From an uncultured Candidatus Saccharibacteria bacterium (lineage in GTDB: Bacteria > Patescibacteriota > Minisyncoccia > Phycocordibacterales > UBA9973): a stretch of DNA of 48,795 nucleotides. Positions 2,957-48,677 of the stretch are shown here, one piece after another (position 1 is the first letter of the stretch; every line of letters begins with the position of its first letter). The notes below the pieces were generated by a model, which saw nothing but the letters and a program-made list of their open reading frames with translations, searched no databases and was not told the origin of the DNA. The stretch lies in NCBI GenBank assembly GCA_964618365.1, contig CAZUAA010000001.1, forward strand, positions 1 to 48,795. Direction: 5' to 3'. Both the position numbers and the translations under genes were made by a program.

Positions 2957-3029
2957 GCCATCCTAGCTCAGTTGGTAGAGCACGGCTTTCGTAAAGCCGG
3001 GGTCCCGAGTTCGATCCTCGGGGATGGCT
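2957..3029 (+). tRNA. tRNA-Thr (CGU); CCA not encoded
   Basis: Fold: GCCATCC-TA-GCTC-AGTTGGTA-GAGC-A-CGGCT-TTCGTAA-AGCCG-GGGTC-CCGAG-TTCGATC-CTCGG-GGATGGC-T. Confidence 0.9.
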
Positions 3030-9129: not shown

Positions 9130-9203
9130 TGGGAGATCGTCTAATGGTAGGACGACGGCTTCTGGAGCCGTCTATCTAGGTTCGAGTCCTAGTCTCCCAG
9201 CCA
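9130..9203 (+). tRNA. tRNA-Gln (CUG), CCA encoded
   Basis: Fold: TGGGAGA-TC-GTCT-AATGGT-AGGAC-G-ACGGC-TTCTGGA-GCCGT-CTAT-CTAGG-TTCGAGT-CCTAG-TCTCCCA-G-CCA. The U1-A72 pair is typical of bacterial tRNA-Gln. Confidence 0.9.
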
Positions 9204-32592: not shown

Positions 32593-32844
32593 ATGGACTT
32601 TATAGAAGAAAGATTGAGTAAAATAGAAGAAAGAAATAGGAAGGTAGAGCTCGATAAAGCTTGGGAAACCAGTTTTATTAGGATTTTATCTGTAAGTATT
32701 ATCACTTACGTTGCGGCATTTTTTGCTTTGTATAGTATCGGTGCAAATAAACCCTACTTCAATGCATTTATTCCTGTATTGGGATTTATTCTTTCGACAC
32801 AATCAATCCCAATTATAAAAAAGTATTGGATTAAGAATAAATAA
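32593..32844 (+). CDS. Small two-TM membrane protein, first ORF upstream of the paralog array
   Basis: 83-aa ORF with a charged N-terminus and two hydrophobic helices. It ends 14 nt before the array. Confidence 0.5.
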   Translation: MDFIEERLSKIEERNRKVELDKAWETSFIRILSVSIITYVAAFFALYSIGANKPYFNAFIPVLGFILSTQSIPIIKKYWIKNK

Positions 32845-32858
32845 AATGTTTTAATTTT

Positions 32859-34607
32859 ATGGAATCTAAAACACCACAATTTGATGCATTGCTTGATAAA
32901 ATCTTAGAAGAGCTTGTCCCACATAAGCGTACTTGCAAATGGCAAGGAGAGCATAAATATTGTGAAGGGGAATTTGAAATAACAAAAGAAGATATTGAGT
33001 TTTTAAAATTACTTCGAGCTCCTGCACCAAATTATTGTCCGACGTGCAGAAGGATAAGAAGGTTTCCACATCTCACTATTTCTCAATTATTTAAAGTTAA
33101 ATGTAATGCTCCAAACCATACAGAATCCATCATTTCTGTTTTTCCAGAAGAATGTCCAGTTCCTATATATGACTATAAGTATTTTATTGGTGATGAATTT
33201 GATCCATTTTCTTTTGGTAGAGTATATGATAAGAGTTTAAGTCCACTGGGTCAACTTTTGGATTTTAGAAAAAAATTTCCTATGCCATCTTTTCTCAATC
33301 GAAACTCATCGGATATAAATAGTGATTATTCTAATGGCGGACGGGATGTTAAAAATGGTTACTATACTGTTGGTTGTTATCATGTTGAAGATGTTTGGTA
33401 TACCATTCATGCAAATAAGAGTAGAAATATTATGGATTCAAATGCAGTTGGTGAATCAGATTTTATTTATGGATGTGTCTCTTCAGATCATTTATACAAA
33501 TCTTCTTTTATATATTTTTCTAGTAATTGTATTAATTCCAGTTTTCTTTTTGATTGTAAAAATTGCCAAGATTGTTTTGGTTGTGTAAATCTTCGAAATT
33601 CTAAATATTGTGTTTATAATGAGCAGTTGACTAAAGAAGATTATGAAAGTTTTATGGGATCGATAACTCCCTTTTCGAGAGATATACTTAAAGAATGTGA
33701 AGAAAAATTTTGGCAATTAGTGAAGAGTCTTCCTCTTAATGGTCCAAGAATAGTTTCTTCAAATAACACAAATGGTGTTAAGATAATAAATTCTAATAAT
33801 TTATTTGATGTTACAGATTCTATTAGTTCTGAGAATGCACGTCATTCTGATGGGATTCAAACTCATAGAGACTCTATGGACATTCTCTATTCCGGAGGTA
33901 ATTCAAGTCTACTTTATATGAATACAAATATTGGCTCACAGTCTAGTAGAGTTAAATTTTCTATATCTTCTAAGTTTTGTTTAGATTGTGAATTTGTTTT
34001 TAATTCTAAAAATCTCACAAATTGTTTTATGTGTTTTGGACTTCAGAATAAATCATATTGTATTTTAAATAAACAGTACGAAGAATCTGAATATTATAAG
34101 ATTGTTGATGAGATAAAATCTCTTATGCTAAAGAGGGGGGAGTATAGTGATGGTCCTGGATTTGAATTTTCTGCTCAAGCTTATAATTTTTCTATTGGGC
34201 AGATTTTGTATCCACTTACCGATGAAGAGATAGTAAAATTTGGTGGCTATATAGCCAAAGAACCAGAAACAAATGTTGGAAATATGGAAGTATTAGGTAA
34301 AGATCAAATTCCTCAGACAATTAATGAAGTAAATGATGATATTTTAGATAAAGCTATTCGTTGTGAAGTGACTGGCAGGCCGTTTAGAATAATTGCTTCA
34401 GAGTTGGCTTTCTTAAGAAGAATTGGATTACCACTTCCAATTATTCATCCTTCATTGCGTATGTCTGGTCGCTGGAAATTCTCTCCTGTTGGTAAAAAAT
34501 ATAAAGCAGTATGTAAAAAATGCCAAAAAGATATGGAAACTTTATTTGATCCTAATGAAAAATATTTGATGTATTGTGAGAAATGTTATCAACAAGAAGT
34601 GATATAA
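32859..34607 (+). CDS. Cys-rich zinc-ribbon/Cys-ladder paralog 1 (most divergent)
   Basis: It shares with paralogs 2-5 the CPxCRRIRR knuckle, two copies of the motif C(F/I)GC(V)NL..K.YC..N.QY..E(E/D)Y, and the C-terminal YCEKCYQQEV. Several Cys pairs are replaced. Confidence 0.85.
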   Translation: MESKTPQFDALLDKILEELVPHKRTCKWQGEHKYCEGEFEITKEDIEFLKLLRAPAPNYCPTCRRIRRFPHLTISQLFKVKCNAPNHTESIISVFPEECPVPIYDYKYFIGDEFDPFSFGRVYDKSLSPLGQLLDFRKKFPMPSFLNRNSSDINSDYSNGGRDVKNGYYTVGCYHVEDVWYTIHANKSRNIMDSNAVGESDFIYGCVSSDHLYKSSFIYFSSNCINSSFLFDCKNCQDCFGCVNLRNSKYCVYNEQLTKEDYESFMGSITPFSRDILKECEEKFWQLVKSLPLNGPRIVSSNNTNGVKIINSNNLFDVTDSISSENARHSDGIQTHRDSMDILYSGGNSSLLYMNTNIGSQSSRVKFSISSKFCLDCEFVFNSKNLTNCFMCFGLQNKSYCILNKQYEESEYYKIVDEIKSLMLKRGEYSDGPGFEFSAQAYNFSIGQILYPLTDEEIVKFGGYIAKEPETNVGNMEVLGKDQIPQTINEVNDDILDKAIRCEVTGRPFRIIASELAFLRRIGLPLPIIHPSLRMSGRWKFSPVGKKYKAVCKKCQKDMETLFDPNEKYLMYCEKCYQQEVI

Positions 34608-34614
34608 TAACATT

Positions 34615-36291
34615 ATGGAATACAAACCAGAAAATAAAGCGTGTCAAAACTGCAAGAGAGACTTTACTATCGAGCCGGAGGATTTTAATTTTTATGATAA
34701 GATGAATGTTTGTGCTCCGAGTGATTGCCCATCTTGTAGGGCTCAATTGAGATTAAGTTTTCGTAACGAGAGAACTTTTTATAAAAGGCCTTGTGATAAA
34801 TGCGGACAAAACGTTATTTCTATGTACTCACCCAATAAGCCTTTTACTGTTTATTGTTATGATTGTTGGTATTCGGATGATTGGGGTGGGGAGGATTACG
34901 GTATGGAGTATGATCAATCTAGGTCATTTTTAGATCAATATGAAGAGTTATGGAAGAAAGTTCCTAAGGTTGCACTTATATATGTAAATAGTCCAGGGAG
35001 CGAATATACGAACATTTCAGCTGATAATAAAAAATGTTATATGATTGTGGAATCTTCTAATAATGAAAATTCTATTAATTCATACTGGATACAAGAGTGT
35101 CGTGATGTAGTAGATACATCTTTTGCTTCAAAATGTGAACTCACTTATGAGAGTGACGATTGTTACAATTCATATAAGATTTTATATAGTAAGGGCTGTC
35201 ATGATTGCTCTACAAGCTACTTCCTAACAGATTGTAGAGGGTGCTCGGATTGTATTGGATGCATAAATTTAGTAAATAAAACAAATTATATTTTCAATGA
35301 GCCGTATAGTAAAGAAGAATATGAAAAAATAAAAAAGGAGTTACAATTAGATACTTTAGATGGAGTAGAATTATTCAGAGATAAATATCAAGATTTTATT
35401 TTAAATAAACCTAGGAAATTTGGAGAAATTGTAAATGTTTTGAATTCGACTGGAAATTATATAAAGAATGCAAAAAATTGTGTTTCTTGTTTCCATTGTT
35501 ATGAAGCAGAGAATAATAAATACGGGGTCCATATTTGGCGAAATGCAAAGGATACTATGGATTGTGATACTGCCGGAAGAAATGTTTCACTTATTTATAA
35601 TTCAATAAATGCAGGAATTGATAATTCAAATTTTGTCTCTGGTTCTGTATGTTGGACTTGCTCGTTTGTAAATTATTCCACATATTGTTTTAATTCAAAT
35701 TATATTTTTGGATGTGTTGGTTTAAGAAAGAAAAATTATCATATACTTAATCAACCATATTCAAAAGAAGAATATGAAATCATTAGAGAAAAGATTATTA
35801 AAGAATTGAAAGATAATAATTTTTATGGTAATTTCTTTCCTAAAAATCTTTCTTGTTTTGGTTATAATGAGACTCCCGCATATGAGCAATTTCCACTTTC
35901 TAAAGAAGAAGCAATAAGGCAAGGTTTTAAATGGGAAGACACAGAAAGAGGGACATATGGGAAAGAGACAATTAAAAAAGAAGATATGCCACAGAATATA
36001 TCAGAGGTAAATTTTGATGTAAAAAATGAAATTTTTGTTTGTCACAATTGTGATAAAAATTTTAGAGTAATAGAAGATGAATTTCTGTTTTATAAAAAAT
36101 TAAATATTCCATTACCAAAACTTTGTCCAGAATGTAGGCATAATAGAAGAATACAGTCTCGTGGTCCAAACAAACTCTGGCACAGAAAGTGTATGAAAGA
36201 AGGATGTACAAATGAATTTCAAACAAGTTATGCTCCTGATAGACCAGAAATAGTGTATTGTGAAAAATGTTATCAAAATGAGGTATACTAA
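34615..36291 (+). CDS. Cys-rich zinc-ribbon/Cys-ladder paralog 2
   Basis: 36 Cys in 558 aa by my count. N-terminal CQNCKRDFTIEPEDFNFYDK...CPSCR, a second ribbon CDKC...YCYDCW, a duplicated core motif, and C-terminal CHNC...CPECRHNRR...YAPDRPEIVYCEKCYQNEVY. Confidence 0.9.
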   Translation: MEYKPENKACQNCKRDFTIEPEDFNFYDKMNVCAPSDCPSCRAQLRLSFRNERTFYKRPCDKCGQNVISMYSPNKPFTVYCYDCWYSDDWGGEDYGMEYDQSRSFLDQYEELWKKVPKVALIYVNSPGSEYTNISADNKKCYMIVESSNNENSINSYWIQECRDVVDTSFASKCELTYESDDCYNSYKILYSKGCHDCSTSYFLTDCRGCSDCIGCINLVNKTNYIFNEPYSKEEYEKIKKELQLDTLDGVELFRDKYQDFILNKPRKFGEIVNVLNSTGNYIKNAKNCVSCFHCYEAENNKYGVHIWRNAKDTMDCDTAGRNVSLIYNSINAGIDNSNFVSGSVCWTCSFVNYSTYCFNSNYIFGCVGLRKKNYHILNQPYSKEEYEIIREKIIKELKDNNFYGNFFPKNLSCFGYNETPAYEQFPLSKEEAIRQGFKWEDTERGTYGKETIKKEDMPQNISEVNFDVKNEIFVCHNCDKNFRVIEDEFLFYKKLNIPLPKLCPECRHNRRIQSRGPNKLWHRKCMKEGCTNEFQTSYAPDRPEIVYCEKCYQNEVY

Positions 36292-36296
36292 GATAT

Positions 36297-38066
36297 ATGG
36301 GATACCAATCAGAAACAAAACAATGCCAAAACTGCAAGAAAGACTTTACTATCGAGCCGGAGGACTTTAATTTTTATGAGAAAATCAAAGTCCCTGCACC
36401 GACTTGGTGTTCGGAATGTAGATTCCAAAGAAGGTGTACATTTAGAAATGAAAGAAAACTTTTTAGAAATATTGATGCAATATCAAAGAAACCAGTTTTG
36501 TCTTTATATCCCATAGAAGCTGGATTTCCAATTTATGAAGATAATTATTGGTGGAGTGATAATTGGGATCCTTGTGATTACGGAGTTTCTTTTGATCGGT
36601 CAAAACCATTTCTTTTGCAATTATATGAATTGAGCAAAAGAGTTCCTTTTATGCGCTCTGATGCCGTGAGAATGGTGAGAAGTGAATACTCTGCAAATGC
36701 AGCTGATCTTAAAGATTGTTATCTTATATTTAATTCTTCTGGTACAGAAAATTCTGCCTACGGAAACGCTGTAGATTATTGCAAAAATGTATTTGATAAT
36801 TCTCACATACAATCATCCGAAAAATGTTATGAATCTTTTTGGTTAAATAAATGTTACGACACCCATTTTTCTTCTTTATGTGAGGATTGTGTTTCTCTTT
36901 GGTTCTGTAAAAACTGTCAAGGATGTATGAACTGTTTCGGGTGTGTAAATCTACGCAATAAATCATATTGTGTTTTTAATGAGCAGTATAGCAAAGAAGA
37001 GTATCTGGAAAAATTAAAATCATTTGATTTTAATAAAAATAGTAATTTAGATAATTTTAAAAAAGAAATAAAAAATTTTTGGTTAAATTTTCCTAATAAA
37101 TATTCACAAGGAATTAGAAATAGTGCTTGCAGTGGGGAATATATTTCTAACTCCAAAAATGTAAAAAATAGTTATCTTATAAGAGAAGGTCAAGACTTGA
37201 AATATGTTCAGTATGGACTAGTCCCTAGCCTAAGAGATTGTATGGATTTATCAGTTAGTGGTAATAATAGTGAGCTTATATATGAAAGTGTCACTTCTGG
37301 CTGGAATTCATCTAATATGAAATTCTGTATGGAATGTTGGGATGGGGGTTCTGATTTTGAGTATAGTATTTTTTGTGGCAAAAAAGCAAATCATGTATTT
37401 GGTGGGGTGGGAATAAAAAGTGGAGAATATGTTATTTTAAATAAACAATATTCTAAAGAAGAATTTTATAAATTGAAAGAAGAAATTATACAGCATATGA
37501 ATGATATGCCCTATATTGATAAGGTTGGTAGGGTGTATAAATATGGAGAATTTTTTCCACCAGAATTTTCACCATTTGCTTATAATGATACTGTCACTAA
37601 GGAACATTTTCCATTGAGTAAAGAAGAGATTTTAGAATATGGTGCTAATTGGTATGAAGTTCCTAAGTCAGAATATGATATAACCATAAATACAAAAGAT
37701 TTACCGGATGATATAAATGATATCCAAGATAATATTTTAGACGAGGTCATTTTATGTGTAGATTGTAGTCGTGCTTATAAAATCATACAAACTGAACTTC
37801 AATTTTTGAGACAAAATAATATCGCATTACCGAGATCTTGCATTAATTGCAGACATGATAAAAGAATTTCTCAAAGAAATAGAAATAAACTTTATAAAAG
37901 GACTTGTGATTGTAATGGAGAATATTCAAATAATGGTAAATATAAAAATGAGGTAATTCATGATCATAAAAATAATTCATGTACAAACGAATTTGAAACA
38001 AGTTACGCCCCCGATAGACCAGAAATAGTGTATTGTGAAAAATGTTATCAAAATGAGGTATACTAA
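36297..38066 (+). CDS. Cys-rich zinc-ribbon/Cys-ladder paralog 3 (partly degenerate ligands)
   Basis: Same architecture as the other paralogs. The second N-terminal ribbon and the second core motif have lost their cysteines (ANHVFGGVGIKSGEYVILNKQYSKEEF). Confidence 0.9.
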   Translation: MGYQSETKQCQNCKKDFTIEPEDFNFYEKIKVPAPTWCSECRFQRRCTFRNERKLFRNIDAISKKPVLSLYPIEAGFPIYEDNYWWSDNWDPCDYGVSFDRSKPFLLQLYELSKRVPFMRSDAVRMVRSEYSANAADLKDCYLIFNSSGTENSAYGNAVDYCKNVFDNSHIQSSEKCYESFWLNKCYDTHFSSLCEDCVSLWFCKNCQGCMNCFGCVNLRNKSYCVFNEQYSKEEYLEKLKSFDFNKNSNLDNFKKEIKNFWLNFPNKYSQGIRNSACSGEYISNSKNVKNSYLIREGQDLKYVQYGLVPSLRDCMDLSVSGNNSELIYESVTSGWNSSNMKFCMECWDGGSDFEYSIFCGKKANHVFGGVGIKSGEYVILNKQYSKEEFYKLKEEIIQHMNDMPYIDKVGRVYKYGEFFPPEFSPFAYNDTVTKEHFPLSKEEILEYGANWYEVPKSEYDITINTKDLPDDINDIQDNILDEVILCVDCSRAYKIIQTELQFLRQNNIALPRSCINCRHDKRISQRNRNKLYKRTCDCNGEYSNNGKYKNEVIHDHKNNSCTNEFETSYAPDRPEIVYCEKCYQNEVY

Positions 38067-38071
38067 GATAT

Positions 38072-39745
38072 ATGGGATACCAATCAGAAACAAAACAATG
38101 CCAAAACTGCAAGAAAGATTTCGTTATAGAATCCGAGGATTTTAATTTTTATGAGAAAATAAAAGTCCCAGCACCAACATTTTGTCCGGAGTGTCGACTA
38201 CAAAGAAGATTATCTTATAGAAATGATTATATTTTTTATAATAGAAGATGTGATTTATGTGATAGAAATATAATTTCTATATATTCACCTGATAACCCTC
38301 AGATTATTTATTGTAATAAATGCTGGTGGAGTGATAAATGGGACCCAAAAAGTTATGCTCAAGATTTTGATTTTTCAAGGCCATTTTTTGAACAATTTCA
38401 AGAATTTCGTGTTAGAATCCCAGCTCTAGCATTGTTTAATGATAACAATATTGGAAGTGAGAATTGTGAGTACACTCAAGATTTAGCTTTTTCAAAAAAT
38501 TGTTATATGTGTATGGTGATGTGGAAAATTCAAGGGTGTATGTATTCTAGTTACGGGGCTGATACTAAAGATACTGTAGATTCAATGGGGATTTTTGGGA
38601 CAGGAGAAGGATTGTATGAAGTTATGTATAGTGAAAAATGTTATGGATGTAGATATGTATATAAATCTACATCATTAATTAATTGCTCTTACTGTTACAA
38701 TTGTAATGATTGCGAAGATTGCTTTATGTGTGTAAATTTGAGGGGTAAAAAATATTTTTTTAAAAATAAACAATATTCAAAAGAAGAATATAAGAAAATA
38801 TTAAGTGATTATAACCTTGATTCTTGGAGTGGAAACAATAAGGCAGAAAAAGAATTTAATGAATTTTTGTTGTCTCAGCCTTTAAAATATGCAATTTTGA
38901 AAAATTGTGTGAGTTGCACAGGGGAAAATATTACCAATAGTAAAAATTCAAAATACAATTTTCACTTACGCCGCTCAGAAAATTCAAAATTTTTAGAAAA
39001 TGGAGATACTCAAAAAGATAGTTATGATTTATGCGTTGGAGGAGAGCTCTCAGAATGTTATGAAGGATTAACACCTGATCATTCAAATAAATCACTTTTT
39101 TCTATTTATACATGGAAGTGCATGAATATTGAATATTCAGAATCATGTCAAAGTTCAAATAATTGTTTTGGTTGTGTCGCTTTAAAACATGGGAGATATT
39201 CAATTTTTAATAAAGAATATTCAAAAGAAGAATATGAATTATTAAAAGAAAAAATAATTAATCACATGAAAGATAATAATGAGTATGGTGAATTTTTCCC
39301 AATGAAGGATTCTCCTTTTGCTTACAATGAGTCAATGGCGATGTTCTCATTTCCACTTTCTAAAGAAGATATCCTTCTTAAAAAATTAAAATGGCAAAAT
39401 AATATCCAAGAGACTAGAGGAAAGACCACCTTATTTGATATTCCAGATAAAATTGAAAATGTATCAGATGTTATTGTTGATGAAATTTTAGAGTGTACTA
39501 AATGTCAAAGGAATTACAAGATAACACTAGACGAGCTTTCTTTTTATCGAAAATGGGGAATACCCATACCGAGATTATGTTTCTTTTGCAGACTTAGAAA
39601 TCGTTTTGAAAAAAGAGGTCCTTCTAAACTCTGGCATAGAAAGTGTATGAAAGAAGGATGTAATAATGAATTTGAAACAAGTTACGCCCCTGATAGATCA
39701 GAGATAGTTTATTGTGAAAAATGTTACCAAAATGAGGTATACTAA
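38072..39745 (+). CDS. Cys-rich zinc-ribbon/Cys-ladder paralog 4
   Basis: Same architecture. The first 16 codons are identical at the DNA level to paralog 3 (the shared 106-nt junction ends inside codon 16). Confidence 0.9.
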   Translation: MGYQSETKQCQNCKKDFVIESEDFNFYEKIKVPAPTFCPECRLQRRLSYRNDYIFYNRRCDLCDRNIISIYSPDNPQIIYCNKCWWSDKWDPKSYAQDFDFSRPFFEQFQEFRVRIPALALFNDNNIGSENCEYTQDLAFSKNCYMCMVMWKIQGCMYSSYGADTKDTVDSMGIFGTGEGLYEVMYSEKCYGCRYVYKSTSLINCSYCYNCNDCEDCFMCVNLRGKKYFFKNKQYSKEEYKKILSDYNLDSWSGNNKAEKEFNEFLLSQPLKYAILKNCVSCTGENITNSKNSKYNFHLRRSENSKFLENGDTQKDSYDLCVGGELSECYEGLTPDHSNKSLFSIYTWKCMNIEYSESCQSSNNCFGCVALKHGRYSIFNKEYSKEEYELLKEKIINHMKDNNEYGEFFPMKDSPFAYNESMAMFSFPLSKEDILLKKLKWQNNIQETRGKTTLFDIPDKIENVSDVIVDEILECTKCQRNYKITLDELSFYRKWGIPIPRLCFFCRLRNRFEKRGPSKLWHRKCMKEGCNNEFETSYAPDRSEIVYCEKCYQNEVY

Positions 39746-39750
39746 TATAT

Positions 39751-41460
39751 ATGGAACACCAATCAGAAGCAAAACAATGTCAAAACTGTAAGAAAGACTT
39801 TACTATCGAGCATGAGGATTTTAATTTTTATGAAAAGATTAAAGTTCTACCGCCAACATTTTGTCCACATTGTAGACTTATAAGGAGAATTACTTTTGGA
39901 AACTATTATAATTTTTACAAAAGAGATTGTGATGCTTGTGGTAAAAATGTTATTTGTATTTATTCAAAAGAAGGAGGGTCAAAAATGTATTGTAATAATT
40001 GTTGGTGGGCGGATAATTGGGATGGAACGGAGTATGGGGTAGATTATGATGAAAATAAATATTTTTTTGAACAATTAATTTCATTAAGAAAAGGTACTCC
40101 TTTTATGGCTTTTGAAGCATTATATCCTTCACTAATAAATACACTATATACAAATCATGCTTCATATCAGAAAAATTGTTTTATGACCATAATGGCTGAT
40201 TACAATGAGAATTGTGCATATTCGACTCTTATTACAAATAGTAAAGATTCAATGGATTGTTATGGAATAAATGAATCAGAGTTGTGTTATGAATGTGTAG
40301 GTATATTTAAATCCTATAATTGTTCTTGGAGTGAAGAAATATCTAATTGTGTAGATTGTCATTTTTGCCAATCTTGTGTCGGTTGTTCCAATTGTTTAGG
40401 TTGTGTAAATTTGAAAAATAGAAGTTATTGCATCTTTAATGAGCAATATTCTAAAGAAGAATATAATAATATTTTAAAAGAATTAAATTTAGAAAACTTT
40501 AATAATTTAATGGCTTTTAATAAAAAAGTTCTAGATTTTTGGATTAAAAACCCAAAAAGATATTATCGAGGTGATAGTTTCAATACTAATGTAACTGGAG
40601 ATTATATTTATGAATCTAAAAATGCGAAAGATTCATATTTGGCAGTTGGCCTTGAAGACTGTAAGTATACACAATTTATAACCTTAAAATCATCAAAAGA
40701 TTGTTTTGATTATACTAGTTGGGGCCATGGAGCTGAGCTTATTTATGAAAGTTATATTACTGGGGAAGGTTCTTATAATATTAAATTTAGCACTGAATGT
40801 TGGCCAAACTCTAGAGATATTGAATATTCTTATTATTGTATAAATTGCAAAGATTGTTTTGGGTGCGTGAATTTAAAGAAAAAACAATATTGTATTTTAA
40901 ATAAACAATATACAAAAGAGGAATATTTTATTTTAAAAGAAAAAATTATTAATGATATGAAAAATAATCCTTGGAAAAATAAAGCAGGACATATTTATAC
41001 TTACGGTGAATTCTTACCACCAGAATTATCTGCTTTTAGTTATCAAGAAAGTATTTCAAACGAATATAATACATTAGAAAAAGAAGAAGCTATTAAAAGT
41101 GGTTTTAATTGGGTTGATATAGCATCAAAAGAATATAGTATAACTCTTGATAATAAAAATCTTCCCCTAACAATATCTGAAATAAATAAAAGTATAAAAG
41201 ATGAAGTAATTGAATGCGAGTCTTGTCATAGGGGATACAATATAAGTAATTTAGAATTTGAATTATTAAATAAATTAAAACAGCCTATTCCACATCAGTG
41301 TTCAAATTGTAGACACAAAAGAAGATTTAGTAGGACAAACAAGCCTATATTTTATGATCGTGTTTGCAATAAATGTGGTGAAAAAATAAGAACCTCATAT
41401 GCCCCTGATAGACCCGAGATAGTTTATTGTGAAAAGTGTTATCAGCAGGAAGTGTATTAA
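39751..41460 (+). CDS. Cys-rich zinc-ribbon/Cys-ladder paralog 5
   Basis: Same architecture, with both core motifs intact (CSNCLGCVNLKNRSYCIFNEQYSKEEY and CKDCFGCVNLKKKQYCILNKQYTKEEY). A strong terminator follows. Confidence 0.9.
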   Translation: MEHQSEAKQCQNCKKDFTIEHEDFNFYEKIKVLPPTFCPHCRLIRRITFGNYYNFYKRDCDACGKNVICIYSKEGGSKMYCNNCWWADNWDGTEYGVDYDENKYFFEQLISLRKGTPFMAFEALYPSLINTLYTNHASYQKNCFMTIMADYNENCAYSTLITNSKDSMDCYGINESELCYECVGIFKSYNCSWSEEISNCVDCHFCQSCVGCSNCLGCVNLKNRSYCIFNEQYSKEEYNNILKELNLENFNNLMAFNKKVLDFWIKNPKRYYRGDSFNTNVTGDYIYESKNAKDSYLAVGLEDCKYTQFITLKSSKDCFDYTSWGHGAELIYESYITGEGSYNIKFSTECWPNSRDIEYSYYCINCKDCFGCVNLKKKQYCILNKQYTKEEYFILKEKIINDMKNNPWKNKAGHIYTYGEFLPPELSAFSYQESISNEYNTLEKEEAIKSGFNWVDIASKEYSITLDNKNLPLTISEINKSIKDEVIECESCHRGYNISNLEFELLNKLKQPIPHQCSNCRHKRRFSRTNKPIFYDRVCNKCGEKIRTSYAPDRPEIVYCEKCYQQEVY

Positions 41461-41485
41461 TTAATGATTAATAAGTATGTTTTAA

Positions 41486-41522
41486 CCCAGATAGGCCTCG
41501 GAGGCCTATCTGGGTTTTTTTA
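41486..41522 (+). terminator. Rho-independent terminator ending the five-gene array
   Basis: 13-bp stem cccagataggcct / aggcctatctggg with a 3-nt loop, followed by a T8 run. Confidence 0.9.
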
Positions 41523-41530
41523 AATTAGGT

Positions 41531-41549
41531 GGGGTGGTATAATTGAGGG
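41531..41549 (+). promoter_or_regulatory. Extended -10 promoter (ggggTGgTATAAT) for the pgl-gnd-zwf operon
   Basis: Same ggggtggtataat core as at 12191 and 13168. The TATAAT box at 41538-41543 lies 6 nt before the ATG at 41550. Confidence 0.6.
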
Positions 41550-42203
41550 ATGGAAATCAAAAATAATTTAAACAAAGAGGAGATCGCAGATTATGTGGCT
41601 TCAGTTATAAATAAAAAATTAAAAGAAGGGAAAAAGGTTTTGTTTTTTGTTTGTGGAGGGTCATCATTAGAAACAGAAGTTTTGGTTTCTCAAAAACTTG
41701 AAAACTTTAATGAAGATAATTTGACCATAACACTTTCAGATGAAAGATGGGGAGAAGTGGGACACAAAGATTCAAACTGGGAAAAACTTAAAAATTTAGG
41801 TTTTAATTTTGAGAATAAAAAACTTATATCATTTTTAATTGGTAAAAGTGTAGAAGAAACAAAATCTTATTTAGAGAATGAACTACGTGATGTTATTTCA
41901 AAAGCAGATTACAAGGTGGCTTTTATGGGTATGGGAAGTGATGGGCATACAGGGGGCATACTGCCTAAAAGTCCGGCTGTTTTTGAAGATGGGCTATTAT
42001 GCTATTATGATGGAGGGGTTTTTGAGAGATTTACCACAACATTTAAAATTTTGGAAAATCTAGATGAAGCATTTCTTTATGTTTTTGGTAGTGATAAATG
42101 GGCAATGGTAGAAAATTTAAATAAAGATATAGATAAGGAAGAAATGCCCGCTCAAATTTTAAAAAAGGTCAAACAATTAACAATTTTTACAGACTATAAA
42201 TAA
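41550..42203 (+). CDS. pgl: 6-phosphogluconolactonase
   Basis: Contains VCGGSS, LSDERWG and MGMGSDGHTGGILP (SugarP isomerase/Pgl family). It lies upstream of gnd and zwf. Confidence 0.8.
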   Translation: MEIKNNLNKEEIADYVASVINKKLKEGKKVLFFVCGGSSLETEVLVSQKLENFNEDNLTITLSDERWGEVGHKDSNWEKLKNLGFNFENKKLISFLIGKSVEETKSYLENELRDVISKADYKVAFMGMGSDGHTGGILPKSPAVFEDGLLCYYDGGVFERFTTTFKILENLDEAFLYVFGSDKWAMVENLNKDIDKEEMPAQILKKVKQLTIFTDYK

Positions 42204-42204
42204 A

Positions 42205-43110
42205 ATGAAAATTATTATATCAGGTTTGGGGAGGATGGGTTCACAAATTGCGAAGAAGCTCCACGAAGGTTCTCATACAGTTATTGCTCATAATAGAGGT
42301 AAAGAAAAAGTTGATATACATAAAGAATTGGGGATGGTGGGAGCTTATACTAAAGAAGAAACTTTAGGAAATTTTGGTGTTGATGAAAAAGTCGTCCTTT
42401 GGATGATGATACCTCACGAGACTGTAGATGATGAGATGAAAGAATGGACGAAAATATTACCAAAAGAAAGTATCATTATAGATGGTGGAAATTCTAGATT
42501 TGTGGATACAAAAAGGAGGAGTGAAGAACTAATAAATTTAGGATTTAAATTTGTAGATATTGGTACTAGTGGAGGAGTCTGGGGTTACCAAAATGGATTC
42601 TCTATGATGATAGGGGGAGATGATGGGTCTGTAGAATATATAAAGCCTATGCTTGAAACCCTGAAAAGTCCTACAGGTATGTATGCTTATTTTGGTGAGA
42701 GTGGAGCAGGACATTATGTAAAAATGGTACACAATGCTATAGAATACGGGATGATGGAGTCACTCGCTGAGGGGTATAGACTTCTTAAAGAAGGACCATA
42801 CAAGAATTTGGATTTGTATAAAGCCGGTGATGTATGGCAACACAGAAGTGTGATAACTTCTTGGCTCAATGAGCTTACAAGAGATGCACTTAAAGAAAAT
42901 CCTAATCAAGAAGGTGTGAATGGAACTGTCTCTGAATCAGGGGAAGCAAGGTGGGCACTTGAAGTCGCTAAAGAATATGATATAGAGACACCAGCCATCT
43001 CTTCTTCTTTTGATGTGCGGATAGAATCACAAAAAGGTAAAATTAATTTTGCCACCAAATTACTAGCTTCTATGAGAAATGCTTTCGGTGGGCATAAAAT
43101 AAATGAATAA
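42205..43110 (+). CDS. gnd: 6-phosphogluconate dehydrogenase (decarboxylating), short form
   Basis: Contains GLGRMGSQIA (Rossmann), DGGNSRF, GTSGGVWG and GAGHYVKMVHNAIEYGMM. Confidence 0.85.
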   Translation: MKIIISGLGRMGSQIAKKLHEGSHTVIAHNRGKEKVDIHKELGMVGAYTKEETLGNFGVDEKVVLWMMIPHETVDDEMKEWTKILPKESIIIDGGNSRFVDTKRRSEELINLGFKFVDIGTSGGVWGYQNGFSMMIGGDDGSVEYIKPMLETLKSPTGMYAYFGESGAGHYVKMVHNAIEYGMMESLAEGYRLLKEGPYKNLDLYKAGDVWQHRSVITSWLNELTRDALKENPNQEGVNGTVSESGEARWALEVAKEYDIETPAISSSFDVRIESQKGKINFATKLLASMRNAFGGHKINE

Positions 43111-44437
43111 TCTAAGACCAACAATATTGATAATAGTAGGTATAACTGGGGATTTATCTACCAGGAAGCTTTTACCAGCACTTGCTGAAATATCTAAAAA
43201 TGAAAAACTACCAGATCAGTTTCGGATAGTTGGGGTCACTAGGCAGAGCAATTTCAATAAAGGTAAATTGTGTAAAAACGAAGACGATGAAAAGATACTC
43301 AAAGAAAAGATAGATATTTTCGAAATGGATTTAAATGAAATTAAAAATTATTTATCTTTAAAAAAGTTTTTATTTGATTTGGGGGAAAAATATGGTTTAG
43401 ATAATCCACAATATTTATTTTATCTTTCTGTTCCACCTCTTGCTTCTTCAAAAATTATAGAACTTATTGGTAAGTCAGGACTTGCGAGTGATAATTCTAA
43501 ATTACTTTTAGAAAAGCCTTTTGGGGTGGATTATGATTCGGCATCTTTGATGCTTTCTCATATAGATAAATATTTAGATGAAGATAATGTGTATCGTATA
43601 GACCATTATCTTGCGAAGGAAACGGTGCAAAATTTGCTAGTTTTTCGTGAGGGTAATTCTCTTTTTAAAAAGACCTGGAATAAAGATTTTATTGAAAGTA
43701 TAGAGATAAATGTGAGTGAAAGTATCGGTATTGAGGGGCGGGCAAACTTTTATGAGCAGACGGGTGCACTTCGTGACCTTATCCAAAGTCATTTGCTTGG
43801 ACTTCTTTCTCTTACACTTATAAACCTAGATAAAGATTATAGTGTCTCTGATATTTCGGACCTCAGATATAAAGCTTTAAAGAAAATTAAAGTTTTAAAG
43901 AATAAAAATAAGATTGTATCTCTTAGAGGTCAGTATGAAGGATATAAAGAAGAAGTTAAAAATGAAAAAAGTAATGTAGAAACTTTTGCATCTATCTCAC
44001 TTTCATCAAGTGATAAGAATTGGAAGGGGGTATCTATTAAGCTTTCTACAGGTAAAGCTTTAAAAGAAAAATATACAGAAATAAGAATTTTATATAAAAA
44101 AGTTCGCGATCATGAATCCAATGAATTACTCTTTAGACTTGAGCCAAACGAAGGTATATCTTTTTCTTTGCTTACAAAAAAGCCAGGATATGATCATGAT
44201 GTGGCAAGACATACACTTGAATTTAATTTCAAGAATCATTACGAATCGTTACCAAAAGCTTATGAACAGGTGATATATAGTGCTATACAGGGTAATCATA
44301 AATTCTTTACATCTGGGAAGGAAGTCTTGGAAACTTGGAGGATTGTCGGGCAGATACAAAAGAATTGGAAAAATTCTGATGATAAAGATTTGGTAATTTA
44401 TAAAAAGGGTAGCGAGATAGAAGAAATAATAAATTAG
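43103..44437 (+). CDS. zwf: Glucose-6-phosphate dehydrogenase
   Basis: Contains GITGDLSTRKLLPAL, EKPFG and RIDHYLAKETVQN. It overlaps gnd by 8 nt. Confidence 0.9.
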   Translation: MNNLRPTILIIVGITGDLSTRKLLPALAEISKNEKLPDQFRIVGVTRQSNFNKGKLCKNEDDEKILKEKIDIFEMDLNEIKNYLSLKKFLFDLGEKYGLDNPQYLFYLSVPPLASSKIIELIGKSGLASDNSKLLLEKPFGVDYDSASLMLSHIDKYLDEDNVYRIDHYLAKETVQNLLVFREGNSLFKKTWNKDFIESIEINVSESIGIEGRANFYEQTGALRDLIQSHLLGLLSLTLINLDKDYSVSDISDLRYKALKKIKVLKNKNKIVSLRGQYEGYKEEVKNEKSNVETFASISLSSSDKNWKGVSIKLSTGKALKEKYTEIRILYKKVRDHESNELLFRLEPNEGISFSLLTKKPGYDHDVARHTLEFNFKNHYESLPKAYEQVIYSAIQGNHKFFTSGKEVLETWRIVGQIQKNWKNSDDKDLVIYKKGSEIEEIIN

Positions 44438-45200: not shown

Positions 45201-48200
45201 ATGAATGAAGAAATAAAATCACAAAGGGCACAGAATGAAGAAAAAATTTTAGAATTTTGGAAAGAAAATAATATATTCCAAAAAAGTTTGGAAAAGGATT
45301 CGCCAAAAGGGGAATATGTTTTCTATGATGGACCACCTTTTGCTACTGGGCTACCTCACTATGGTCATATTCTTGGAAGTACCGTTAAAGATGTTATTGG
45401 TAGATATAAGACCATGAGTGGTTTTAATGTTCCTCGTCGTTGGGGGTGGGATTGTCACGGTTTACCAATTGAAAATATAGTTGAAAAAGATTTAGGTATT
45501 TCAGGGAAGAAAGCGATTGAAGAACTTGGAATTGCTAAATTTACCGAACATGCTCGTAGTAAGGTTTTGACTTATGTTGGTGAATGGAAAAAGACAATCG
45601 ATCGCATGGGGCGTTGGGTAGATTTCGACAATTCATATAAAACTATGGATAACACTTTTATTGAAAGTGTTTGGTGGGCACTTGGTGAGATGAACAATAA
45701 AGGATTACTCTATGAAGGTGTTAGAGTTCTTGCTTATTGTCCACGATGCGAGACTCCAATTGCAAATTCTGAAATAGCTATGGACAATAGTTATAAAGAT
45801 ATAACTGATATTTCAGTATATGTAAAATTTAAAATTCTTAATGAGGATTATCCTAATACATATCTATTGGCTTGGACGACAACCCCTTGGACTCTTCCAG
45901 GGAATACAGCAATTGCTATTCATAAAGACATTATTTATTCAGCAGTCAGAGTCAAAGGAATTGAAGAGCTTCTTATTGTTGCGAAAGAAAGTATCTTAAA
46001 TGTTTTTAAAGATAAAGAAATTGAGATAATTCATGGTGATATTAAAGGATCTGATTTAGTCGGTCTTTCTTATGAGCCAATATTTAATTACTATAAAAAT
46101 TTAGATATACCAAATAAAGAGAATATTTGGAAAGTTTGGCATGCAGATTTTGTGACATTGGATAAAGGGACAGGAATTGCTCATGAGGCTCCAGCCTTTG
46201 GTGAGGATGATATGAATCTTGCGAAAATAAATAATATTCCATTTATTCGTCACGTTGAGCCGAATGGAGATTTTTCAAAAGAAGTAATAGATTTCCCAAA
46301 TATAAAAGTAAAACCAAAAGAAGACCATCAATCGACAGATATTCTTATTATTAAGTACCTTGCTCATACGGGTAGTCTATTTGCTAAAGAAAAAATTATT
46401 CACTCGTATCCGCATTGTTATCGTTGTGAGACTCCACTTTTGTATTATGCTCTTCCTTCTTGGTTTATAAATATTCAAAAAGTTAAGAATGACTTATTGA
46501 AAAAAGGTGAAGATATGAATTGGATTCCTAGTCACCTAAAAGATGGACGATTTAAGAATACCATGGAATCTGCTCCTGATTGGACAATTTCTAGAAATCG
46601 ATATTGGGCAAGTCCACTACCTATATGGAAAAACAAAGATGGTAAAGTTATGATGGTAAATTCTGTTGAGGATTTAAAATATAAAACCAAAAAATCTGGG
46701 AATAAATATTTTGTTATGCGACATGGTGAGACAGAGTGTAATGTTAGAGGGGAGGTTAGTTCTACTGTAAACAATGATGATAATCTAACAAGTAAAGGGG
46801 TTGAACAGGTTTTAAAATCTGCAGATGAATTAAAAAATAAAAATATTGACCACATCATAACTTCTCCTTTTGTGAGAACCCGAGAAACAGCAGAATTATT
46901 GGCCGAAAAAATTGGATATGATAAAGAAAAAATTATTTATGATGATAGGCTTCATGAAATGTCTGTACCTATGTATGAAGGAAAGAAATGGAAAGAATAT
47001 CATGATGCTTATGCTAAAACTGTAGAGAATTTTTACAAAGCACCCGAAGGTAATGAGTCGTATGAAGATGTGCGACGCAGGTCAATGAGTTTTTTGTATG
47101 AAATAGAAAAAGAATATTCTGGTAAAAATATTTTGATTGTTACTCACGGAAGCCCTGTTTGGCAAATGTTTTCGGAAGTCAATGGATTAAGTACTGAAGA
47201 ATCATTAGGAATAGTTAAAACAGAAATGAGTTTTAACTATTTAGGAAATGGTGAATTTGTAGAATTACCTTTTGTTCCATTACCACATAATGCTGAATAT
47301 AAATTTGATTTACATAGGCCTTATATAGACAATATTGTTCTTGTGGATGAAAAAGGTGATGAATATAAAAGAATTCCAGAAGTTATTGATTGCTGGTTTG
47401 AATCAGGTTCAATGCCTTTTGCTCAAGATCACTTCCCATTTGAAAATAAAGATTGGCAAAAAAATAATTTCCCTGCAGGTTTTGTGGCTGAATACATAGC
47501 TCAAACAAGGACCTGGTTTTATTATACTCATGCAATTTCCACGATTCTTTTTGGAAATGCTCCGTTTGAAAACGTTGTTACTACGGGGACTGTTTTGGCT
47601 GAAGACGGAAGTAAAATGTCAAAATCAAAGAATAATTATCCAGATCCTTGGAAGTTGTTTAATAAATATGGAGTTGATGCGCTTCGTTTTTATCTCATAT
47701 CTAGTACTTTAATGAAAGGTGAAGATGTAAATTTTTCTGAAAAATTAGTACAAGAAGTTTCAAGCAAAATCATAAATAGATTTGATAATGTTGTTTCATT
47801 TTATGAATTATATAGAAATAAAGATATAGAAGCTGAAGAATATAGAGTTTCTGGTAATATTTTAGATAAATGGATAATTACTAGATTAAATCAATTAAAG
47901 ATAGAGGTAAAAAATGGGATGGAATTATATGATTTATCTTTAGCTACAAAACCTTTTGATTTATTTATAGAAGATCTTTCTACTTGGTATTTACGTCGAT
48001 CTCGAGATGTATTAAAGGATGGGAATAGGGATTCTTTGTATACTCTTTATTTTGTGATAAAAACAACAGTCCAACTTTTTGCACCTTTTATGCCTTTTAT
48101 TGCTGAAGAGATTTGGAAAAAGATTAAATTAGATTCTGATCCTAATAGTGTTCATTTAAGTAATTTCTTTTTAGATCTTAAAATAGAAGATATAAATATT

Positions 48201-48677
48201 AGTATTATTAATGAAATGAAAGAAGTAAGAGAGATTGTGACTCTTGGACTTCAGGCAAGACAAAAAGTAGGAATACCAGTTAGACAGCCACTTGGAAGAT
48301 TATTAATTACTAATTATCAATTACCAGTTGAATATGAGGAGATAGTAAAAGATGAATTAAATGTTAAAGAAATAAAAATAATTGATGATGGAGAAAAAAA
48401 TATAAAACTAGACACTGAAATTACTCCAGAACTTAAAGAAGAGGGGAATTATCGTGAACTGGTACGTGCAATACAAGATATGAGAAAGAAAATGGGGCTT
48501 AATCCAAATGATGTGGTGAACCTAGAGATAGAAACTGGAGTAGAAGGGCAGAAAATAATAAATAGATTTGAAAAAGAATTTGAAAAGGCAGTAAGTGCTA
48601 AGGTGTCTATACAAGAAAATGGAGGAGAGCAAATAAAAATAAGTGATTTATTGTTTATTGTAAATTTGGTAAAATAG
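45201..48677 (+). CDS. ileS: Isoleucine--tRNA ligase with an inserted histidine-phosphatase (PGM-like) domain
   Basis: Contains HIGH (PHYGHILG), KMSKS, the editing-domain motif WTTTPWTLP and CWFESGSMPF. Residues ~500-700 carry RHGETECN, TSPFVRTRETA and VTHGS. Confidence 0.95.
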   Translation: MNEEIKSQRAQNEEKILEFWKENNIFQKSLEKDSPKGEYVFYDGPPFATGLPHYGHILGSTVKDVIGRYKTMSGFNVPRRWGWDCHGLPIENIVEKDLGISGKKAIEELGIAKFTEHARSKVLTYVGEWKKTIDRMGRWVDFDNSYKTMDNTFIESVWWALGEMNNKGLLYEGVRVLAYCPRCETPIANSEIAMDNSYKDITDISVYVKFKILNEDYPNTYLLAWTTTPWTLPGNTAIAIHKDIIYSAVRVKGIEELLIVAKESILNVFKDKEIEIIHGDIKGSDLVGLSYEPIFNYYKNLDIPNKENIWKVWHADFVTLDKGTGIAHEAPAFGEDDMNLAKINNIPFIRHVEPNGDFSKEVIDFPNIKVKPKEDHQSTDILIIKYLAHTGSLFAKEKIIHSYPHCYRCETPLLYYALPSWFINIQKVKNDLLKKGEDMNWIPSHLKDGRFKNTMESAPDWTISRNRYWASPLPIWKNKDGKVMMVNSVEDLKYKTKKSGNKYFVMRHGETECNVRGEVSSTVNNDDNLTSKGVEQVLKSADELKNKNIDHIITSPFVRTRETAELLAEKIGYDKEKIIYDDRLHEMSVPMYEGKKWKEYHDAYAKTVENFYKAPEGNESYEDVRRRSMSFLYEIEKEYSGKNILIVTHGSPVWQMFSEVNGLSTEESLGIVKTEMSFNYLGNGEFVELPFVPLPHNAEYKFDLHRPYIDNIVLVDEKGDEYKRIPEVIDCWFESGSMPFAQDHFPFENKDWQKNNFPAGFVAEYIAQTRTWFYYTHAISTILFGNAPFENVVTTGTVLAEDGSKMSKSKNNYPDPWKLFNKYGVDALRFYLISSTLMKGEDVNFSEKLVQEVSSKIINRFDNVVSFYELYRNKDIEAEEYRVSGNILDKWIITRLNQLKIEVKNGMELYDLSLATKPFDLFIEDLSTWYLRRSRDVLKDGNRDSLYTLYFVIKTTVQLFAPFMPFIAEEIWKKIKLDSDPNSVHLSNFFLDLKIEDINISIINEMKEVREIVTLGLQARQKVGIPVRQPLGRLLITNYQLPVEYEEIVKDELNVKEIKIIDDGEKNIKLDTEITPELKEEGNYRELVRAIQDMRKKMGLNPNDVVNLEIETGVEGQKIINRFEKEFEKAVSAKVSIQENGGEQIKISDLLFIVNLVK

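Follow-up and report, generated by a model that had tools for sequence, protein, structure and literature searches.

Why should a very small bacterial genome keep a run of five large, cysteine-rich paralogs that a reader of the sequence could not assign to any enzyme or family? The question is raised by a 48,795-nt stretch of DNA (contig CAZUAA010000001.1, hereafter the window; positions are numbered over the whole stretch), in which five co-directional open reading frames (ORFs), par1 to par5 in gene order, occupy 8.6 kb. Relatives of these genes are found in Parcubacteria (Paceibacteria), which form the largest class within the Candidate Phyla Radiation; their genomes are below 1 Mb and their host lifestyle is hardly known. 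From genomes so small, a family of such size should have disappeared if it were dispensable. Elsewhere up to nine family genes (~17 kb) stand in a single locus. We looked at what these genes adjoin in other genomes, and found frequent linkage to genes for VirD4/TraD-like ATPases. This gives orphan ATPases of that kind concrete candidate partners, and makes their role directly testable.

We clustered the ORFs neighbouring family genes across 79 genome loci seeded with the family (80 were fetched, two being copies of one contig). The commonest non-family neighbour was the ATPase: 27 of the 80 fetched loci (26 of the 79 distinct ones when counted by hidden Markov model (HMM)) contained it, with 39 genes in total, and a median gap of 95 bp separated it from a family gene; no other neighbour cluster exceeded nine loci. 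In the reverse test, for which metagenome contigs were seeded with the ATPase (80 loci, 823 ORFs), a family gene was present in 58 loci. Of the 62 loci in which the contig continues for at least 1.5 kb downstream, 50 contained one and 48 had it within 2.5 kb. Family genes made up 134 of the 823 ORFs and were the immediate neighbours of 77 of the 148 ATPase genes. All 83 adjacent ATPase-family pairs had both genes on one strand, a median of 59 bp apart, and the 58 adjacencies counted in the ATPase-seeded loci compare with 37.3 ± 4.6 (maximum 55) in 2,000 within-locus permutations.

The linkage was kept across three different gene contexts: (a) a gene for a sigma70_r4/HARE-HTH protein followed by c8, c12, a short form of the ATPase and family genes; (b) DnaK, a long form of the ATPase, a family gene, the short ATPase and DnaJ, as in locus L108; and (c) a family array, the long ATPase, an LTD/PKD secreted protein and a methyltransferase. 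The trio 5' of the short ATPase in context (a) is itself conserved (L096, 6952-9959; L010, L022, L053, L074, L123 and others), and consists of the sigma70_r4 plus HARE-HTH protein of ~340 aa, c8 of ~450 aa with one N-terminal transmembrane (TM) segment, and c12 of ~171 aa, also with a TM segment. Neither c8 nor c12 has an assigned family; the two may supply the membrane anchor that is absent from the soluble ATPase. In L108 (3848-12670) and at least ten similar metagenome loci (L093, L100, L104-L106, L119, L122, L126 and others) a module of long ATPase, family gene and short ATPase separates dnaK from dnaJ, and a PaaX-like gene with a Cas2-like domain lies divergently upstream of dnaK.

The ATPase is a soluble P-loop protein whose matches to the Pfam families TrwB_AAD_bind, TraG-D_C, T4SS-DNA_transf and DUF87 lie just above the domain cut-offs, and whose N-terminus, by direct reading, is not hydrophobic. 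The short form (~490 aa) is 66-92% identical across most aligned loci, with one sequence at 47%. The long form (600-1,000 aa) carries a canonical zf_Tbcl_2 zinc finger (E 1.4e-14) and then a low-complexity tail, and its finger proved homologous to two of the four fingers of the family proteins described below, B (96%) and B' (93%), and not to A or A' (hhalign probabilities). A 2025 census counted 5,713 VirD4-like type IV coupling proteins (T4CPs) in 2,918 Patescibacteria genomes, about two per genome, of which only 148 were near virB4; relaxases were largely absent, and in the view of its authors an exaptation of these proteins to another function cannot be ruled out (PMC12102498). We take the ATPases described here to be orphan T4CPs of that census, because they match the same Pfam signatures and occur in roughly two copies per genome. 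No virB4 or other mating-pair-formation (MPF) gene and no relaxase was found among the clusters present in at least three loci or among the neighbours that we annotated, which leave out most ORFs seen next to a single locus only.

What kind of protein is linked to these ATPases? A preliminary description of the window, made from its letters alone, had distinguished five shared motif modules, and these are visible in the alignment of the five proteins, which covers their full length at identities far beyond chance (par1 ~28-30% identical to the others, par2 to par5 41-46% among themselves). Profile-profile comparison (hhalign), built on a 45-sequence alignment, bore out both repeats that it had noticed: half 1 of the core matched half 2 with 99.6% probability (E 1.5e-23), indicating an internal duplication, and the N-terminal finger A matched finger A' near the C-terminus with 99.3%. 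Finger B in turn matched the last finger, B', with 96.6%. The order is fingers A and B, predicted β-solenoid 1 with its cap, predicted β-solenoid 2 with its cap, and fingers A' and B'; the two solenoids are rich in Cys, Asn and Ser, and each is closed by the cap motif 'GCVNL...Y-x-I-x-N-x-x-YSKEEY' and a helix. The 72-nt segment that encodes 'GCVNL...YSKEEY' occurs in eight copies, two per gene in three genes and one in each of the other two.

The five proteins hold 25-39 cysteines each (36 in the 558 aa of par2, as first counted). Scored over 188 family members, the 16 finger cysteines are conserved in 63-100%: 98% for Cys10/13/38/41 of finger A, 63-87% for C60, C63, C81 and C84 of finger B, 87-98% for Cys476/479/504/507 of finger A', and 99-100% for C526, C531, C549 and C552 of finger B'. 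Fingers B and B' both show the CxxC-x17-CxxC pattern, two knuckles with four conserved cysteines, the first knuckle of B' in par2 being C-x4-C. Two paralogs deviate from this plan. Par1 is extended by 25 aa at its N-terminus, and some or all ligands are missing from its fingers A, B and A', finger B' being intact; in par3 the ligands of finger B are lost and finger B' contains an insertion. Core cysteines stand on a strict 3-residue register (141, 153, 165, 168, 177, 180, 183, 186, 195, 198, 207, 210, 213, 216 and 225). Most of these columns are only 30-56% Cys, exchanging with Ser, Thr and Val; the best conserved are C207/C210/C213/C216 (84-96%) and C358/C367/C376 (77-93%), and the second-half motif loses Cys in par1 and par3. 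After the second knuckle, an Arg-x3-Arg is invariant in fingers A and A'.

AlphaFold2 modelled full-length par2 with a pLDDT of 81.6 and a pTM of 0.84, the fingers and caps being very confident and the solenoid bodies moderate (62-73); the core alone, with a 145-sequence alignment, reached a pLDDT of 77.9 and showed a regular EEEE-- strand pattern that repeats every 6 residues. The five proteins are free of hydrophobic segments (maximum Kyte-Doolittle 19-residue mean ≤1.43) and of signal-like N-termini, in agreement with the absence of signal peptides and TM helices noted at first reading, and no enzyme motif was recognised. They are best seen as soluble, non-enzymatic binding modules, probably stabilised by zinc, with zinc-ribbon-type ends and a duplicated periodic core. 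Zinc binding is expected because tested CxxC-x17-CxxC proteins bind it: in small proteins of Methanosarcina the domain was shown to do so by inductively coupled plasma mass spectrometry (PMC12704099).

Cys4 fingers and a solenoid are familiar as pieces, and no known family or system accommodates the whole. We compared all five proteins and the 45-sequence profile with Pfam, NCBIfam, PADLOC, PHROGs and PDB sequences, and found no characterised family over most of the length in Pfam, NCBIfam, PDB or Foldseek searches. The earlier statement that the family cannot be named stands for the ~370-aa core, which had no match in Pfam, NCBIfam, PADLOC or PDB sequences and whose sole match was a weak one (E 2.6e-5) to the unannotated phage family phrog_15341 in PHROGs. 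It does not stand for the fingers, which alone match known families (zf_Tbcl, zf_Tbcl_2, TIGR04272 and LIM), all below the cut-offs for the window proteins: 22-24 bits against 27 for zf_Tbcl_2 (PF23477), 19-21 against 36 for TIGR04272, and 17-18 against 24 for zf_Tbcl (PF13451). Several orthologs carry a precomputed above-threshold match to PF23477 and a few to PF13451. With the CxxC-x17-CxxC domain proteins (TIGR04272, PF23477) the family shares their pattern in B and B', and with the 'probable treble clef' domains of PF13451 the zf_Tbcl pattern in A and A'. Those are single small domains of unknown function; the family places four fingers around a ~370-aa duplicated core in proteins of 560-590 aa. 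LIM domains also have two consecutive Cys4 fingers, and the C-terminal end matches the LIM domains of CRP1/MLP weakly (E 0.0015-0.04), but the Pfam LIM score is 15 bits against a cut-off of 22.9, the match covers finger B' only, A' and B' are 18 residues apart instead of 2, and all ligands are Cys with no His. Spacing, ligand pattern and HMM score thus all set these proteins apart from LIM.

The β-solenoid with a Cys ladder that had been proposed for the core gained qualitative backing from the period-6 strands, from the 3-residue register of the cysteines and from a Foldseek search of the core model against PDB, in which all of the top 50 matches were left-handed β-helix proteins, among them GlmU, LpxA, LpxD, γ-carbonic anhydrase and FdtD. 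None was significant (E ≥ 2.1, TM ≤ 0.13), and in our reading these matches support generic triangular β-solenoid geometry, not homology. Left-handed β-helix proteins share the 6-residue strand period; in contrast to them, the family has no Hexapep Pfam match and no [LIV]-G-x4 motif, and it has short solenoids, a Cys/Ser/Asn ladder on a 3-residue register and a family-specific cap. Neither the [LIV]-[GAED]-x2-[STAV]-x motif of the hexapeptide-repeat superfamily nor a significant structural match to it was found. The full-length model gave nothing significant against PDB (best E 2.6), and against BFVD only zinc-ribbon matches of 44-66 columns. The 'Knotted Solenoid' fold (PNAS 2026), considered as another solenoid of one bacterial group, is an unrelated 14-kDa family of Brevundimonas. 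In our literature searches neither the family nor its palindromic layout proved to be described, nor did its expansion in tiny genomes or its association with exapted coupling-protein ATPases, and nothing identifiable as the family was present in a Paceibacteria metatranscriptome paper and its supplements.

Conservation beyond this genome was confirmed on a large scale. An exhaustive profile search returned 5,341 clusters at 50% identity, 2,207 of them with E ≤ 1e-30, and the best 150 listed are all 523-612 aa long; at 90% identity more than 4,993 clusters matched par2 and more than 6,923 matched par5, both lower bounds from candidate-limited searches. At source, members are named 'hypothetical protein', 'zinc-ribbon domain containing' or 'CxxC-x17-CxxC domain-containing'. 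All organism labels that can be interpreted point to Parcubacteria/Paceibacteria (Nomura-, Lipton-, Jorgensen-, Staskawicz-, Harrison- and Brennerbacteria, Minisyncoccia). Some titles of metagenome-assembled genomes conflict with this, namely those of L013, L042 (Burkholderiales) and L069 (Bdellovibrionales), as well as the many 'uncultured Candidatus Saccharibacteria'. The gene order of L042 is that of the Nomurabacteria locus L035, which suggests that the conflicting titles are mis-binned or generic, and L069 has the same c20-c8-ATPase module. A mobile-element or phage origin was rejected: among 2.9 million viral contigs one marginal fragment was the only trace of the family, and collections of phages and plasmids gave no match.

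Average-linkage clustering of the 188 members gave at least 19-34 deep subfamilies, and the five paralogs of the window fall into five different ones. Their best identities elsewhere are 78% for par1 (a 100% copy is the source genome itself), 82% for par2, 52% for par3, 72% for par4 (in L034) and 83% for par5. The par1 orthogroup consists nearly throughout of proteins of exactly 582 aa, 58-78% identical; that of par2 spans 56-82% across Nomura-, Lipton-, Jorgensenbacteria and others, and the homologues listed for par5, 48-83% identical, include records of Lipton-, Jorgensen- and Brennerbacteria. Since the nearest relatives of each paralog are found in other genomes and not in the array, the five are not recent duplicates, and recent tandem duplication or gene conversion was rejected as the origin of the array as far as the gene bodies are concerned. 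Most subfamilies are single-copy per locus, the main exception being cluster A, which is large and heterogeneous. Arrays differ in size and composition, with one to nine genes per locus and differing sets of subfamilies, and 43 of 78 family-seeded loci hold at least two copies. When the par2 and par5 orthogroups are compared, positions that are conserved in both but different concentrate in the two solenoid bodies, and universal ones in the fingers and caps; such a pattern suggests one shared scaffold whose surfaces are specific to each subfamily.

How these observations fit together is best captured, in our judgement with a probability of about 45%, by a family that works with orphan, soluble, VirD4/TraD-like hexameric P-loop ATPases, as client-specific adaptors or as cargo. 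The finger pairs and the invariant C-terminal tail would be the common handle that meets the pump, whose long form has finger B itself. The solenoid surfaces, which vary between subfamilies and are conserved within them, would give each paralog its own target. Family proteins would then dock physically on the ATPase, either bringing different clients to it or being the cargo themselves. The tail is conserved at the protein level even in par5, the last gene, which has no family gene downstream and keeps the peptide QQEVY without the GAGG that this tail encodes in par2, par3 and par4.

The closest mechanistic analogy would be the coupling of a T4CP (VirD4, TraD or TrwB) to its substrates or adaptors, such as relaxases or the IcmS/W-type adaptors of DotL. 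The C-terminal extension of TraD and DotL is a partner-docking region, and the long ATPase here is likewise extended at its C-terminus, where finger B of the family is found. In both settings a VirD4/TraD-like ATPase has tightly linked, co-directional partner genes, relaxase genes adjoining T4CP genes (PMC12102498) and family genes adjoining the ATPase; such linkage was seen in 26 of 79 and 58 of 80 loci of relatives, but not in this window. Unlike established T4CPs, the ATPase has neither a family-level HMM score nor an N-terminal membrane anchor, its genes being preceded by those of the separate small membrane proteins c8 and c12; no virB4/MPF gene or relaxase was recognised in its loci; and its partners, a zinc-finger/solenoid family of 20-plus subfamilies, have no resemblance to a known substrate or adaptor.

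Several points weigh against a partnership with these pumps. The best NCBIfam scores of the ATPase are 46-56 bits, set against cut-offs of 250-648 for TraD/VirD4-like coupling proteins, and it has no relative among PDB sequences, so the pumped substrate is not given by homology. In the family-seeded loci the adjacency permutation was not significant (25 observed against 22.4 ± 3.4), because family genes dominate those loci. No T4CP-like ATPase is encoded in the 48.8-kb window, so the array here would be a satellite, away from ATPase genes, and 53 of the 79 family-seeded loci have no ATPase within 10 kb; the linkage is therefore frequent and not obligatory. Proteins encoded side by side need not interact. 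Translocated effectors do not typically have four folded zinc fingers or strongly conserved orthologs, the invariant Arg-x3-Arg of A and A' would fit nucleic-acid binding just as well, and the core models are moderate only, with a pLDDT of 57-73 across much of the solenoids.

A bolder version, which we regard as improbable, is that these proteins are the clients that the orphan pumps have so far lacked: 20 or more conserved proteins that a VirD4-like pump, with its own c8/c12 partners or with a type IV secretion system, would export onto or into host cells, or else, with the pump, the parts of an entirely new machine of the cytoplasm, for which a conjugation ATPase was exapted. Were they exported, they would be the first candidate effectors of Paceibacteria parasitism and of its interaction with hosts; were they not, a new type of ATPase-associated machine would be at hand.

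Of the other explanations, a nucleic-acid-binding scaffold survives best, though we still hold it to be unlikely. Here the four fingers would bind DNA or RNA and the solenoids would serve as spacers or DNA mimics, the proteins coating, holding or presenting a polymer that the ATPase pumps, or acting independently of it. T4CP-type ATPases are DNA pumps in conjugation, and a weak, sub-threshold NCBIfam match links the ATPase to the DNA-translocating CedD; within the family, the helix that follows the second Cys knuckle bears the Arg-x3-Arg, core 2 and the C-terminal fingers have a basic pI of 8.65-8.68, and one homologue bears the JGI label 'Zn ribbon nucleic-acid-binding protein', an automatic name and not a test. 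The whole proteins, however, are acidic (pI 5.6-6.2), as are the N-terminal finger pair and core 1 (pI 4.5-5.1), no DNA- or RNA-binding family of Pfam or NCBIfam matched, more than 20 conserved subfamilies with specific solenoid surfaces are hard to square with generic coating, and the census found relaxases largely absent from Patescibacteria.

The subfamilies are old and each is strongly conserved, and most occur once per locus; they might instead occupy fixed positions in a hetero-oligomeric assembly, a β-solenoid polymer or cage, as subunits do in CCT or the proteasome, with the ATPases and DnaK/DnaJ serving assembly and disassembly. Co-directional arrays with 5-nt spacing are consistent with co-translation, in many loci the genes are embedded between dnaK and dnaJ, and the architecture is pseudo-symmetric with two homologous ends. 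A machine of fixed stoichiometry would nevertheless be expected to keep a constant set of subunits, and composition, order and copy number vary widely among genomes, close relatives of the window locus having just one or two of the five genes; we therefore rate such an assembly as quite improbable.

Context (b) also raises the idea of proteostasis co-factors: as zinc-finger holdases or co-chaperones, the proteins would pass particular clients on to DnaK/DnaJ, and the ATPase would act as unfoldase. DnaJ itself binds clients through a Cys-rich zinc domain, a DnaJ gene lies immediately downstream of 29 ATPase genes and a DnaK gene immediately upstream of 10, and L108 has the order given for context (b). 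This possibility seems remote to us, because the proteins show no similarity to DnaJ_CXXCXGXG or any other chaperone family in Pfam, FtsK/VirD4-type ATPases are not known as protein unfoldases of the Clp/Hsp100 kind, and the DnaK/DnaJ context is one of three and could reflect conserved gene order in one clade.

The cysteine content of the proteins and the well-conserved columns of the core (CxxCxxCxxC) might also speak for a metal or redox buffer or an Fe-S carrier, in which the core cysteines would bind metal or clusters and would not be structural. Fer4, DnaJ_CXXCXGXG, ferredoxin, radical-SAM and metallothionein families gave no match in Pfam or NCBIfam, and the spacing is not a known Fe-S motif, being without the Pro or Gly of CxxCxxCxxxCP and CxxCxGxG. 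Most core columns exchange Cys for Ser, Thr or Val as is typical of a structural ladder, the second-half motif is not kept in par1 and par3, and a buffer needs no 20-plus conserved subfamilies of 560-aa proteins, all of which makes this role very unlikely. A diversifying immune or conflict family of intracellular sensors paired with an NTPase, suggested by the multi-copy arrays of variable size, the P-loop neighbour and the phrog_15341 match, and offered in part by the preliminary description as a diversifying recognition family, deserves the least credence of all, given that PADLOC-DB yielded no defence component for any of the five proteins at E ≤ 1, that each paralog has its own strongly conserved and not fast-evolving orthogroup elsewhere, that the neighbourhoods are housekeeping (argS, ileS, secDF, dnaKJ), and that phages, plasmids and viral contigs lack the family but for the fragment mentioned above.

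Returning to the array itself, the five ORFs are intact and lie where first reported, 7, 5, 5 and 5 nt apart (Table 1). A terminator was correctly seen to close the array and has a T-run, but its stem is longer than the 13 bp first given. Shine-Dalgarno (SD) sequences had been declared absent; GAGG motifs nevertheless precede three of the five genes, par3, par4 and par5. Each is encoded by conserved C-terminal codons of the preceding gene, AAT GAG GTA TAC (N-E-V-Y), so that peptide tail and translation signal overlap at these three sites. At the DNA level only the 300-nt junction segments are unusually similar (79-80%), the gene bodies being ~41-46% identical at the protein level, and these junction units could drive recombination or reshuffling of array members. 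The antisense ORFs in the array are by-products of the conserved junction sequence. No Rfam family was found in the array region.

Table 1. Coordinates of the features of the array and domain boundaries in par2 (aa, amino acids).
Feature	Position	Strand	Remarks
tm83	32593..32844	+	83-aa predicted membrane protein; 14 nt 5' of par1
par1	32859..34607	+	582-aa ORF; subfamily I
par2	34615..36291	+	558-aa ORF; subfamily B
par3	36297..38066	+	589-aa ORF; subfamily C
par4	38072..39745	+	557-aa ORF; subfamily D
par5	39751..41460	+	569-aa ORF; subfamily J; 39 Cys
SD-like GAGG for par3	36280..36283	+	13 nt 5' of ATG, within the last codons of par2
SD-like GAGG for par4	38055-38058	+	13 nt 5' of ATG, within the last codons of par3
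SD-like GAGG for par5	39734-39737	+	13 nt 5' of ATG, within the last codons of par4
Junction repeat copy 1	36204..36503	+	par2 3' end, spacer and par3 5' end; 79% identical to copy 2
Junction repeat copy 2	37979..38278	+	par3/par4 junction
Junction repeat copy 3	39658..39957	+	par4/par5 junction; 80% identical to copy 2
Intrinsic-terminator-like hairpin and T-run	41484..41526	+	closes the array; hairpin 41484-41516, 15 pairs, 3-nt loop
par2 finger A	residues 1-52		treble-clef, zf_Tbcl type
par2 finger B	residues 53-95		CxxC-x17-CxxC, zf_Tbcl_2 type
par2 solenoid 1 and cap	residues 128-236
par2 linker helices (two)	residues 237-265
par2 solenoid 2 and cap	residues 266-387		followed by a helix
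par2 mid motif 'FFP..S.F.YNE...FPLSKEE'	residues 403-435		followed by a variable linker
par2 finger A'	residues 471-517
par2 finger B'	residues 518-558

The array does lie between argS and pentose-phosphate genes, as had been noted: upstream is the gene for ArgS, and downstream are those for 6-phosphogluconolactonase, a 6PGDH-like protein and G6PD. The closest syntenic relatives (L002, L003 and L004) have the order dut-argS-tm83-(par1)-par2 with ileS directly after; in L027 a par4-like gene takes the place of par2, tm83 is missing and ileS again follows directly. Here par3 to par5 and the pgl/gnd/zwf genes stand between par2 and ileS (compared region 36297-44437). Because the closest relatives run par2 straight into ileS, these genes are extra in this genome: either this locus gained ~8 kb or its relatives lost ~8 kb.

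The small gene tm83 is possibly co-transcribed with par1. Only the three closest relatives share it, in each case immediately 5' of the family gene; it is absent from all other loci, and it was rejected on this ground as a general partner of the family; its conservation among these relatives is 75-83%, that of ArgS 70-75%, and it has no Pfam match. The aminoacyl-tRNA synthetase genes argS, ileS and cysS recur near arrays, and were dismissed as a functional clue since their frequency is no higher than small genomes would give. The isoleucyl-type synthetase of the window (45201-48677, + strand) is a class-I enzyme of 1158 aa with a His_Phos_1 domain (E 7.8e-36) inserted at residues 504-668, in the middle of its catalytic domain, and its orthologue in L057 (11007-14567) has a similar histidine-phosphatase-like stretch, judged by eye. 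The first 9.2 kb of the window contain five tRNA genes, within 224-415 on the - strand and at 1590-1661, 2957-3029 and 9130-9200 on the + strand.

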